Counted from the first letter of the stretch, positions 13,171-16,219 are shown. The stretch: DNA of 64,000 bases from an uncultured archaeon (GCA_963782915.1 CAWALK010000022.1:265098-329097); one strand, 5' to 3'. A program made the numbers and translations. Notes: generated by a model from the letters alone, not told the origin.

Positions 13171-13185
13171 GATAACGGCGTTATA
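13171..13185. promoter_or_regulatory. Candidate operator A upstream of metY (GATAAC-GGC-GTTATA)
   Basis: Matches the TATAAC-N3-GTTATA palindrome also at 15386, 16102 and 16205. Confidence 0.6.
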
Positions 13186-13202
13186 ACCGTTCTTGCAAAA
13201 AA

Positions 13203-13218
13203 TATTCCAAAAAGAATA
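13203..13218. promoter_or_regulatory. Candidate operator B upstream of metY (TATTC-N6-GAATA)
   Basis: Exact reverse complement of 16117-16132. Confidence 0.5.
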
Positions 13219-13303
13219 TCCTCGAAGGAGCGAGAAGATAACCTTAAGCCCAATTATCACTTGTCAGAAGAAAGAAAGTTAGAATAGCGACTTGGAACTC
13301 AAG

Positions 13304-14353
13304 TTAGTGCGTATGGTTTTCCATTTTATAGATTTGCTCAGGCTTTGAAATAGTAATTTTTGTGCCTGGAGCAACAGGTCCAGTAACCCAAACGTTCCCA
13401 CCGATAACAGAGTTGTCGCCAACTACAGTTTCTGCACCCAGCAAAGTAGCGCCTGAATAGATAACGACGTTGTTGCCGACGGTTGGGTGGCGTTTGCGCC
13501 CTTTTATGATGTTGCCTTTCTCGTCCTTGGGAAAACTCAACGCGCCCAATGTGACGCCTTGGTAGAGTTTGACGTTGTCGCCGATTTCGGCTGTTTCGCC
13601 GATGACGACGCCTGTGCCGTGGTCGATGAAGAAGTTTTTGCCGATTTTTGCGCCCGGATGAATATCTATGCCTGTCAATGAATGCATGTGTTCACTCATG
13701 ATGCGTGGAATCAACGGCACGCCGCTTAAGTAGAGTTCGTGGGCTATGCGGTAAGTGGTAATCGCTAGGACACAGGGGTAACTAAGAATAACTTCGTCAT
13801 TACTGACGGCCGCTGGGTCGCCGCTGTATGCAGCTTGGATGTCTCCGCTGAGTTTTGAGCGGATTTCAGGCAGTTTATCAAGGAGGTCACGTGACACAAC
13901 GTGCGCCCGTTTTTGGCAGAGGTCCTGTGGGCATTCGCTGATTTTTCTGCAAATATATTTCAGGCTCTTTTCAGTTTCATCTGTGAGCCGAGTGTAAACT
14001 GAGGTAATTTTGAGTCCTAAATGATACTTGATGTTGGCTTTGGTGACTTCTGAATCACCTAAGTAGCCGGGGAAAAGAATACTGAACAGGTCTTCGAGGA
14101 CTTCGATGACGACTTTTTTGGATGGGAGGTCGCGTCCTTCAAGATGGTCCATGCCGCCGAATTTTTCGTAGCTAACCATTATGTCGTCTACGAGTGCTGG
14201 GACACCTTTTAGCACCCAGTCTTGCTCTACAGTTTGGTTGTTACGCATAAGTGTGTCTAGCATGCGGTCTGGGTTCCAGCAGTCAATGTCCTTGTTTTTT
14301 TCTAGGCATTCTTTGCAGTCTTTTGGTCGAGGCTGAGTGGGGTTTATCGTCAT
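13304..14353 (-). CDS. cysE: Serine O-acetyltransferase (long EpsC type)
   Basis: [41 protein letters not shown]. Confidence 0.95.
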
Positions 14354-14426
14354 GTCTTTTCCCTTTCCCTCTGTATTGTCGAGGGGGAAATATAAGAGAA
14401 GCGTCTTTCAAAAGGAAAAAAGGGTT

Positions 14427-15371
14427 TTAGATGGTTGGTGGTGGAGTTGGCTCCTGGAATAGTGGTGTGCTTAGGTAGCGTTCGCCTGTGTCTGGTAGGA
14501 TGACAACGATTAGTTTACCCTTGTTTTCGGGGCGTTTTGCAACTTCAATTGCTGCCCACGCTGCTGCTCCCGCGGAGATACCGACCAGTAAGCCTTCCTT
14601 TTGCGCAAGTGCTCGAGCCGTTTTTAATGCATCATCGTCTGTTACTTGTACGATTTCATCAACCAAGTTTAATTGCAGCACATCGGGTTTGAAGCCTGCG
14701 CCTATGCCCTGGATTTTGTGTGGACCTTTCTTTCCGCCGCTCAGTACTGGTGACCCTGCTGGTTCGACAGCTATTGCTTTGAACGAGGGTTTTTTTGGTT
14801 TGATGGCTTCTGCGACGCCTGTTATGGTTCCGCCTGTGCCGACACCTGCAACTACGAAGTCCACTTTGCCGTCTGTGTCTTCCCAGATTTCGGGACCTGT
14901 GGTTTCTCGGTGGACTTTGGGGTTGGCGAGGTTTTTGAATTGTTGGGGCATGAAGCTGTTGGGTGTGGCGGCGATGAGTTCTTCTGCTTTTTTGATGGCT
15001 CCGCCCATGCCGTCTGGTCCGGGTGTGAGGACGAGTTGTGCGCCGTATGCTTTGAGGAGGTTGCGGCGTTCGATGCTCATGGTTTCGGGCATGGTTAGGA
15101 TGAGTTTGTAGCCTTTGACGGCTGCGACCATGGCGAGTCCGATGCCTGTGTTGCCGGATGTGGGTTCGATGAGTGTTGCGCCGGGTTTTATTATGCCTTG
15201 TTTTTCGGCTTCATCTATCATGGCTTGGCATATGCGGTCTTTGACGCTTCCGCCGGGGTTTTTGGATTCGAGTTTAGCTACGACGGTGGCGTTTGTGCCT
15301 TCGGTTAGTTTGTTTAGTTGGATGAGTGGTGTTTTTCCGATTGTTTCTAACACGTTTTTGTTTATTTTCAT
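14427..15371 (-). CDS. cysK: Cysteine synthase A
   Basis: [47 protein letters not shown]. Confidence 0.97.
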
Positions 15372-15385
15372 GTCACTACACTTTC

Positions 15386-15400
15386 TATAACACTGTTATA
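15386..15400. promoter_or_regulatory. Candidate operator A upstream of cysK (TATAAC-ACT-GTTATA)
   Basis: Perfect 6-3-6 palindrome ~15 nt upstream of the ATG and downstream of a BRE/TATA-like element (minus strand GAAAAGGTTTTTAAG, 15415-15429). Confidence 0.7.
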
Positions 15401-15530
15401 AGTTTTAGGTGTTGCTTAAAAACCTTTTCGGCAACCTAAGAAGCCCCAAAGAAAAACATATTCTCTGGCGGCAAACAAAGACCACCAAAACATAAACGCA
15501 ATAGAAAGAACCAATACTTAAAAAATACCC

Positions 15531-16086
15531 TCAAAGCATCCTAAGCAAGTCAGCCTTCGTAATAATACCAATGACCACGCCTTTCTTGGAAACCAAAACA
15601 GCCGAATAAGTCTGCAACAAGCTGGTAATCAACGACAAGGGGCGCATCATCGTTTATCTGCGGGAAAGCTTCCTCCATAATTCTCTCTGTGGGTTGCTTA
15701 GAAATTTCATCTAAATCTTGCCCCGCTAAAATTTGGCGTAGAATTGCTTTTTCTGAAATGCTGCCCACGGATTGTTTTCCGTCAAAAACGGGTATTTGCG
15801 AGTAGCCGTGTTCCTTCATGACTGTGACGGCTTCGGAGATTGGCTGGCTTCTTTGTACGCTTACGACTTCGGTGTGGAGGATTTTTTCTGTTTGGACTTT
15901 GGTTTTGAATTCTAAGCGTTCGAGCACGTCGAAGATTGTTCTTACTTTGGTGTATGATGAGTCGATGGTTCCAGCTTCGAGTTTGGCGATGAGGGATTGG
16001 CTTACGCCTGCGGCTTTGGCTAATTCGGATTGTTTTAAGCCTAGTTGGCGTCTGCGTTTGCCTATGTCTTCTAGTGTGGGGAACAT
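15531..16086 (-). CDS. XRE-type HTH plus tandem CBS domain regulator (COG3620-like; frameshift ~15640)
   Basis: RRQLGLKQSELAKAAGVSQSLIAKLEAG; CBS motif YSQIPV...GSISE; corrected end SLLQTYSAVLV...GIITKADLLRML*. Confidence 0.88.
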
Positions 16087-16101
16087 GGATTTTAATTGAT
16101 A

Positions 16102-16132
16102 CTTAACACTGTTATATATTCTTTTTGGAATA
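16102..16132. promoter_or_regulatory. Adjacent operator A (CTTAAC-ACT-GTTATA) and operator B (TATTC-TTTTTG-GAATA) at the HTH-CBS promoter
   Basis: 13 nt identical to the cysK site; B is identical (inverted) to the metY site. Confidence 0.65.
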
Positions 16133-16204
16133 AGCCTTTTGCCTCAGAAGAGAACAACCCACAGAATACGAGGAAAAGTTTGTCCGATTGAAATGACTTA
16201 TAAG

Positions 16205-16219
16205 TATAAGTGCGTTATA
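16205..16219. promoter_or_regulatory. Candidate operator A upstream of the divergent HTH gene (TATAAG-TGC-GTTATA)
   Basis: One mismatch to consensus; ~15 nt upstream of ATG 16234. Confidence 0.5.

Follow-up and report, generated by a model that had tools for sequence, protein, structure and literature searches.

In this study, we report two palindromes at the promoters of cysteine and methionine synthesis genes, and of two regulator genes lying beside them, in a 64,000-nucleotide stretch of archaeal DNA (the window; GCA_963782915.1, CAWALK010000022.1:265098-329097). The first palindrome, motif 1, is TATAAC-N3-GTTATA, with the 13-mer core ATAAC-N3-GTTAT; the second, motif 2, is TATTC-N6-GAATA. 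One regulator (HTH-CBS) joins a helix-turn-helix (HTH) domain of the HTH_3 family to a pair of cystathionine beta-synthase (CBS) domains, and the other (HTH2) is a small XRE-type HTH protein. The window comes from the genome of a soil Bathyarchaeia, designated G000, which is 3.28 Mb in size and 93.5% complete. The features of the locus are listed below in window coordinates; lengths are in nucleotides (nt) or amino acids (aa), ORF stands for open reading frame and BRE for the B recognition element that accompanies the TATA box.

10096 to 10690, minus strand: metW, split between two overlapping ORFs (10265-10690 and 10096-10362) and probably closing the metY operon
10767 to 11439, minus strand: metX (homoserine O-acetyltransferase), in at least two ORF fragments
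11824 to 13125, minus strand: metY, O-acetylhomoserine sulfhydrylase, 433 aa, PF01053 (Cys_Met_Meta_PP) E 1.5e-134
13171 to 13185: GATAACGGCGTTATA, the motif 1 copy of metY, whose ATG (13125, minus strand) follows after 45 nt
13202 to 13219: motif 2 at the metY promoter, ATATTCCAAAAAGAATAT, present with at most one mismatch in 87 of 90 metY regions
13304 to 14353, minus strand: cysE-like serine O-acetyltransferase gene, 349 aa, TIGR01172 E 1.4e-48
14427 to 15371, minus strand: cysK, cysteine synthase A, 314 aa, TIGR01139 475.8 bits (cut-off 351)
15386 to 15400: TATAACACTGTTATA, the motif 1 copy of cysK, whose ATG (15371, minus strand) follows after 14 nt
15415 to 15431, minus strand: CGAAAAGGTTTTTAAGC, a conserved BRE/TATA-like element that precedes the cysK copy of motif 1 by 14 nt
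15531 to 16086, minus strand: HTH-CBS (subfamily A), PF01381 and PF00571, frameshifted
16102 to 16116: CTTAACACTGTTATA, the motif 1-like site of HTH-CBS, between TATA box and start and separated by 15 nt from the ATG (16086, minus strand)
16116 to 16132: motif 2 at the HTH-CBS promoter, ATATTCTTTTTGGAATA on the plus strand, the second exact genomic copy
16205 to 16219: TATAAGTGCGTTATA, the motif 1 copy of HTH2, directly behind the TATA-like CTTATAAG and separated by 14 nt from the ATG (16234, plus strand)
16234 to 16590, plus strand: HTH2, 118-aa XRE-type HTH protein, PF01381 26.7 bits (cut-off 23)

The four motif 1 sites lie where a sequence-only reading of the window had placed them, and the distance of about 15 nt to the start codon that it gave for cysK, HTH-CBS and the divergent HTH gene was measured as 14, 15 and 14 nt. 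The 15-mer at cysK, TATAACACTGTTATA, is the only perfect copy in the genome. When the whole genome was scanned with the 15-mer TATAACNNNGTTATA, one exact and seven one-mismatch copies were found, and three of these eight fall within the 3.1 kb of the locus; in simulations, at least three of eight random positions clustered this tightly with p = 0.000155. Within the window, five matches with at most two mismatches were obtained against 1.75 expected, a number reached by 2 of 100 shuffles. The 13-mer core itself is not enriched genome-wide, having five exact copies against about five estimated by hand from base composition; two of them are at this locus, two are inside ORFs and one precedes a 75-aa ORF without family. 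In five relatives, the exact core occurs 22 times and its reversed control 24 times. Eight of these core sites lie at metY or cysK and the other 14 have no recurring neighbour; seven of those 14 were inspected and one (L268) is promoter-like. Because the core is neither enriched genome-wide nor above the reversed control in relatives, motif 1 is a rare, local element of a small regulon and not a general promoter feature, so that the check for commonness at unrelated promoters came out in favour of the regulon first proposed.

The other one-mismatch sites of G000 adjoin genes for a PocR histidine kinase, an AAA/GNAT pair, a beta-CASP nuclease, a LigD primase-polymerase/Ssb-like pair and a LysR/DsrE pair, as well as ORFs without family, and no recurring theme was found among these neighbours. 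Among the sites found by the genome-wide scan that had been suggested, one is sulfur-related and another is not conserved. The former is a one-mismatch core, ATAACACCTTTAT, at C25:50080, between a LysR-type regulator gene and a DsrE/DsrF-like sulfur-transfer gene. The latter concerns HcyBio, a homocysteine-biosynthesis enzyme (PF01837 plus CBS), which was considered as a motif 1 target and rejected. In G000, TATAATGATGTTATA lies 80 nt upstream of HcyBio (C20:204976); none of 27 genus loci has an exact site there, three have a one-mismatch site at differing positions, and among 17 family loci only that of G000 is within one mismatch; we treat the site as a product of chance or as lineage-specific. 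The HcyBio genes of the genus (G000 C20:204897-205020, L229-L253) share a BRE/TATA-like TTGCG(C/T)AAAnAnTAT and a conserved leader containing CCTTTTCGATTGGCATTAAGGTAAGG, a block that may be a separate control element.

The relatives used for comparison were metagenome-assembled genomes (MAGs) of "Candidatus Bathyarchaeota/Bathyarchaeia" from soil, peat and sediment. Set 1 comprised 20 loci (L001-L020) from the same genus and one neighbouring family, and set 2 comprised 80 loci (L031-L110) with an HTH-CBS identity of 64-89%. Since some genomes sit in both sets (e.g. L002 = L039, L010 = L058), unique-sequence counts are given beside raw counts. Conservation was counted from the best motif match in the 130 nt ahead of each start codon, and the metY locus of G004 (L111), whose upstream region is GC-rich and dissimilar, was set aside.

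Footprinting across orthologous promoters bore out the cysteine/methionine (Cys/Met) regulon motif. Of 90 metY upstream regions (76 unique sequences), 88 had the exact core, as did 29 of 32 upstream of cysK (27 unique); at cysK it was also exact in loci from other genera and a second family (L130, L133, L135). Upstream of HTH2, exactly one mismatch (TATAAG/A-N3-GTTATA) was present in all 68 close relatives (61 unique). Column information is near its maximum in each arm, with low values in the spacer and flanks. As controls, none of 13 NT5C and none of 18 cysE upstream regions came within two mismatches of motif 1, and cysE is read as co-transcribed with cysK because it lacked the motif in 18/18 relatives.

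The position of motif 1 relative to each gene is also conserved. At metY, motif 1 stands about 13 nt behind motif 2 and ahead of a variable leader, mostly of 28-57 nt, the leaders printed having a GGAG-like Shine-Dalgarno sequence. At cysK a AAAGGnTTTAAGC block (window ~15415-15431) is followed after about 14 nt by motif 1 and then by 13-23 nt to the start; this is the BRE/TATA-like element that had been noted ahead of the cysK site, it recurs in relatives, and we infer that it acts as the cysK TATA box. At HTH2, a TTTATAAG-like box is followed immediately by motif 1 and mostly 14-16 nt to the ATG. Motif 1 therefore overlaps or abuts the core promoter at metY, cysK and HTH2, and archaeal repressor sites usually overlap or abut the core promoter. 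Its occurrence in common at the cysK, metY and regulator promoters, together with its conservation, supports the reading of motif 1 as a candidate promoter-overlapping operator of a Cys/Met regulon.

The protein best associated with motif 1 is HTH2. Its ATG at 16234 was set by an ATGGA(C/T)CC conserved in relatives, and HTH_3 was matched at residues 22-54, above the Pfam gathering score, with no match to an ArsR or winged-HTH (wHTH) family. Existing annotation calls it only a "predicted transcriptional regulator". A homology search returned 696 cluster representatives at E <= 1e-3, and within the order 99 of 151 genomes gave a homologue. Aligning 60 sequences showed Cys5, Leu24 and Cys98 to be invariant, and Cys95, Glu6, Arg17, Gln43, Tyr49 and Arg54 to occur in 90% or more. 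The AlphaFold2 model (mean predicted local distance difference test score, pLDDT, 84.4) is all-helical, with long helices at 3-27, 59-81 and 91-103, and a fold search with it against the PDB gave no match at E <= 0.001. A predicted homodimer complex scored 0.02, which was taken as evidence neither way.

Among 43 HTH2 loci fetched, ATAAn-N3-GTTAT was present in 30 of 32 orthologues of 43-57% identity, belonging to several genera and families, and in 28 of those 30 it follows a TTTATAAG-like box and begins 28-37 nt ahead of the start codon. It was found at none of the 11 paralogues of 40% identity or less. By eye, 10 of these 11 have other palindromes in a like architecture beside the TATA box, namely ATGAC-N4-GTCAT, TTAAC-N3/4-GTTAA, ATTAC-N4-GTAAT and one of TGTGA type, and locus L129 likewise has one. 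G000 itself encodes a paralogue at C24:121763-122074 (minus strand), with 27% identity and extra C-terminal Cys motifs, whose promoter carries tandem ATGAC-N4-GTCAT-type palindromes beside a TATA-like box, an arrangement also seen in the same paralogue subfamily elsewhere (L129, L160, L165-L167). Such a change of palindrome from one paralogue to the next, each at its own promoter, is a classic signature of autoregulation. As only one HTH-CBS gene was found in G000, HTH-CBS proteins cannot explain the paralogue palindromes.

Motif 2 is associated with HTH-CBS. Upstream of this gene the relatives share TATTCCAAAAAGAATAT, consisting of the arms TATTC and GAATA with a 6-nt spacer, and at most one mismatch to it was found in 88 of 100 HTH-CBS upstream regions. 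At the cysK upstream regions of relatives, motif 2 never came within three mismatches. The 17-mer has two exact copies only in the 3.28-Mb genome (13203 and 16116), the next best match having two mismatches. In 88 of 94 promoters the motif ends 26-28 nt before the HTH-CBS ATG, and because of this spacing its gene-proximal arm is probably the TATA box of a leaderless mRNA, with the A-run as BRE. Where the promoter is not shared with metY (36 unique promoters), the distal (left) arm shows the same degree of conservation, which suggests an operator and not a promoter alone.

A search of 61 family genomes with the 14-mer ATTCTTTTTGGAAT gave 22 matches, against 3 for the reversed control. Fourteen of them lie just upstream of an HTH-CBS start, where the divergent partner gene is metY in six, HcyBio in five, HTH2 in one and unidentified in two; one more is the metY copy of G000, and the remaining seven are within or beside unrelated ORFs. 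All of 12 further HTH-CBS orthologues (53-62% identity, two families) also carry motif 2, with HcyBio as the partner gene in eight and metY in two. No motif 1 was present in the 115 nt upstream of the eight HcyBio-linked HTH-CBS genes.

The HTH_3 domain of HTH-CBS was matched at residues 10-55 with 37.6 bits (cut-off 23), and the Pfam match to HTH_3 and CBS falls on the ORF at 15550-16086. The orthologues are 184 aa long with an HTH_3 domain and a full CBS pair, and align to CBS-pair structures over residues 65-184, so that an N-terminal HTH and two CBS motifs occur in one chain. A paralogous subfamily B shares 31-41% identity with subfamily A, and both are present in three genomes (G139, G096, G161). 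Subfamily B is divergent from the archaeal S-adenosylmethionine (SAM) synthetase gene (PF01941) in 7/8 and 6/8 loci. The partners metY, HcyBio and SAM synthetase tie the HTH-CBS family to homocysteine, methionine and SAM, and make an adenosyl or SAM-type ligand plausible. In subfamily B promoters (L023-L030, L221-L228), ATAAC-N5-GTTAT encloses a GGAGG-like Shine-Dalgarno sequence and could act on DNA or mRNA. The archaeal SAM synthetase PF01941 was not found in the 93.5% complete G000 by a search for this archaeal type alone, which did find it in four control archaea.

The locus can be read as a two-regulator, two-operator unit in which HTH2 would act on motif 1 and HTH-CBS on motif 2, a reading to which we assign a probability of roughly 0.6. 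An HTH2 dimer, with its three conserved cysteines, would take motif 1 as operator and, when bound, block TBP/TFB or RNA polymerase, repression being the presumed direction, so as to repress its own gene and two sulfide-fixing pathways. Motif 1 would cover the core promoters of metY-metX-metW, cysK-cysE and HTH2. In the subclade of G000, motif 1 probably controls HTH-CBS as well, judged from the site at its promoter. HTH-CBS would take motif 2, overlapping its own BRE/TATA, upstream of metY or, in other genera, of HcyBio, and its CBS pair may report a methionine/SAM-type adenosyl ligand.

The distribution of the genes is consistent with this division. In family f11, only HTH-CBS matches of 35-40% identity and no subfamily A match were found, and its locus L135 has HTH2-cysK-cysE with motif 1 at both promoters. 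Three other genomes (G072, G073, G146) have HTH2 and motif 1 and no HTH-CBS match at E <= 1e-12. Conversely, motif 2 accompanies HTH-CBS in G131, where no HTH2 was found. In four genomes of the genus that are 88-98% complete (G006, G017, G018, G019), HTH-CBS, metY and close HTH2 are all absent together, which suggests that the three genes serve one function.

The sequence-only reading had taken HTH-CBS for the binder of motif 1 at all four promoters, as a SAM- or adenylate-sensing autorepressor; on that model HTH2 would be either a bystander or one of the targets. The most frequent gene order puts HTH-CBS and metY on the two sides of one intergenic region of about 110 nt that holds the palindrome, and the exact core is present in 73 of 100 HTH-CBS upstream regions when this shared region is included. 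The palindrome nevertheless tracks HTH2, in 68/68 close relatives and in 30/32 orthologues from other families, and it is missing from 16 of 27 HTH-CBS promoters not shared with metY, which keep TATTC-N6-GAATA, as well as from the 115 nt upstream of the eight HcyBio-linked genes. It is kept at HTH2 and cysK in f11 and in the genomes without an HTH-CBS match, the HTH2 paralogues have palindromes of their own without matching HTH-CBS paralogues, and the invariant motif 2 would be left without a binder. We therefore regard HTH-CBS as an unlikely binder of motif 1. It is also improbable, on our estimate, that the two regulators cross-regulate or co-bind, each acting on the other's promoter, both reading ATAAC half-sites or forming a hetero-complex, with metY integrating both inputs at neighbouring sites. 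Such an arrangement would fit the constant presence of both motifs about 13 nt apart at metY, their abutting at 16116 in G000, and the occurrence of the ATAAC half-site with both N3 and N5 in the same genomes (G025, G037, G038), but the paralogue-specific palindromes at HTH2-family promoters point to self-recognition, and the presence of motif 2 with HTH-CBS in G131 is likewise against it.

That motif 1 is not an operator at all, being instead a TATA box with its promoter context or a leader RNA hairpin, we consider very improbable. Its left arm, TATAAC or TATAAG, resembles a TATA box and, at cysK and HTH2, precedes the start codon by 22-29 nt, as would fit a leaderless mRNA; the right arm, GTTAT, is not TATA-like yet is as conserved as the left, the spacer varies, and the element is absent from other promoters, as the genomic and control counts above indicate. 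As RNA, the cysK palindrome folds with -2.5 kcal/mol, which 121 of 200 shuffles equalled or bettered, and in the best folds at metY and HTH2 the two arms are not paired with each other. Rfam covariance models gave no match at E <= 1 over 12900-16800. With folding at shuffle level and no Rfam match, the hairpin or riboswitch reading was rejected. The metY leader RNA of G000 (13126-13190, minus strand) does fold with -15.7 kcal/mol (z -2.55), pairing the GGAG region; relatives' leaders are variable, and this fold may be specific to G000.

Several points weigh against the assignment of HTH2 to motif 1 and HTH-CBS to motif 2. The counts obtained within the genus fit cross-regulation equally well, and only the paralogue and phyletic arguments disfavour it. 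The relatives are also akin to one another, so that the counts overstate their independence. An ATAAC-N3-GTTAA-type site, placed between TATA box and start, directly follows motif 2 in 11 of the 27 HTH-CBS promoters not shared with metY, that of G000 among them. Subfamily B promoters carry ATAAC-N5-GTTAT just before the start of the regulator's own gene, also in two genomes (G034, G028) in which no HTH2 was found, and an HTH-CBS protein could accordingly read ATAAC half-sites. The right arm of motif 2 is probably a mere TATA box, which leaves the conserved left arm as the only argument for a palindromic operator. In G000 itself, the HTH-CBS gene has a 1-base frameshift at a C4/G4 run (~15639-15642) that puts the second CBS motif out of frame, and the conserved C-terminus ...ITKADLLRML (VLVSKKGVVIGIITKADLLRML) is encoded in another frame. 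Finally, the public sequencing runs found contained at most 14% of the sampled words, and the sole RNA run 5%.

metY scored 651 bits against TIGR01326 (cut-off 495). Since fragmented metX and metW lie downstream of it, the site at 13171 heads a metY-metX-metW operon. MetX (NF001209) was matched by profile positions 201-306 on 10767-11234 and 133-196 on 11131-11439, and the two metW pieces by positions 2-135 and 119-193 of TIGR02081, as well as by PF07021. The cysE-like ORF scored 155.5 bits against NF041874 (cut-off 150); its transferase domain occupies residues 169-332, and the N-terminal ~165 aa match no family. Two gene orders occur in relatives, one with metY divergent from HTH-CBS and the other with HTH2 and metY reading one way and HTH-CBS, cysK and cysE the other (metY<-HTH2<- ->HTH-CBS->cysK->cysE), and the order in G000 is a rearranged version of the latter. 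Both metX and metW are split into overlapping ORF pieces (window 10096-11605), and together with HTH-CBS they show several frame breaks in about 6 kb. These are probably homopolymer indel errors of the assembly, although true pathway decay could also have produced them.

A short palindromic operator lying over a promoter and bound by an autoregulated HTH dimer is of a textbook kind. Phage 434/lambda-type XRE repressors, for example, are autoregulated dimers of the HTH_3 fold with short palindromic binding sites, and the 434 repressor was among the weak sequence matches; these phage proteins are without a sensor part, whereas HTH2 has extra long helices and the conserved Cys site. For HTH-CBS, the closest comparison is CcpN (YqzB) of Bacillus subtilis, which is modulated by adenine nucleotides. 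It is described as an HTH plus two-CBS repressor of gapB, pckA and sr1, whose HTH binds conserved regions of the target promoters (PMC7028823). The earlier statement that this family has no characterised operator needs a qualifier. HTH-CBS resembles CcpN in having an N-terminal HTH followed by a CBS pair, and the two are likened by domain order alone. CcpN is bacterial and acts on gluconeogenic genes, whereas the archaeal HTH-CBS adjoins metY, HcyBio or SAM synthetase, and the putative operator, TATTC-N6-GAATA lying over a BRE/TATA of archaeal type, has no relation to what PMC7028823 describes for CcpN.

The best functional analogy for HTH2 is SurR of the Thermococcales, which is archaeal and has a Cys motif and a short palindromic site of GTT/AAC type. 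SurR is a protein of ~220 aa with two ArsR-type winged HTH domains and an N-terminal CxxC, controlling hydrogenase and elemental sulfur (S0) reduction genes. It is autoregulated and sulfur-responsive, the state of its CxxC controls DNA binding, and its sites are given as GTTn3AAC and GTTn3AACn5GTT (PMC12162507). HTH2, by contrast, is a 118-aa HTH_3 protein with Cys5 and a C-terminal C95-x2-C98 and no SurR-like fold match; its half-sites ATAAC/GTTAT have the opposite arrangement to those of SurR (AAC-N3-GTT), and its targets would be cysK and metY. By analogy with the CxxC switch of SurR, we infer that the HTH2 cysteines may form a thiol, metal or iron-sulfur (Fe-S) sensor. No Rrf2 domain was matched in HTH2 or HTH-CBS in Pfam or NCBIfam. 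Both proteins are outside the SurR-type regulators and outside Rrf2 (IscR, NsrR, CymR).

Bacterial Cys/Met regulators respond to O-acetylserine, SAM or S-adenosylhomocysteine (SAH). CymR, CysB, MetJ, McbR, SahR and CmbR follow the same logic, being repressors or activators dedicated to short operators at cysK, metY-type and methionine genes; their protein families and the transcription machinery differ from those of the archaeal pair, and no paper listed on them deals with archaea. In open-access full text, no paper was found on transcription control of archaeal cysteine, homocysteine or SAM synthesis, and none on regulation in Bathyarchaeia or on the function of COG3620, the group to which the sequence-only reading had likened HTH-CBS; the single paper that names COG3620 is on an unrelated matter. 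The pairs proposed here would thus be new regulator-operator pairs of textbook kind, in a lineage and a pathway with none described.

Bathyarchaeia are an abundant uncultured lineage of soil and sediment, for which the locus offers two candidate protein-operator pairs with metY-metX-metW, cysK-cysE, HcyBio and possibly SAM synthetase as targets. A wider proposal can be made only tentatively. HTH2 may found an unrecognised, archaea-wide family of small XRE-type sensors, in which Cys5/Cys95/Cys98 (with Glu6) would hold an Fe-S cluster, a metal or a reactive thiol pair that reads sulfide or thiol status, and in which each paralogue would read its own nnnAC-N3/4-GTnnn palindrome; with a SAM-sensing HTH-CBS, it would form a two-input circuit setting CysK, MetY and HcyBio, which fix sulfide. 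The paralogue-specific HTH2 palindromes could then be a natural recognition code for regulon annotation in archaeal MAGs, and, if the ligands are as proposed, the proteins would be usable as sulfur or SAM biosensors. If the two-input circuit is real, HTH2 would stand for sulfur supply and HTH-CBS for methyl-donor demand, and this would be the first described transcriptional control of Cys/Met synthesis in archaea.

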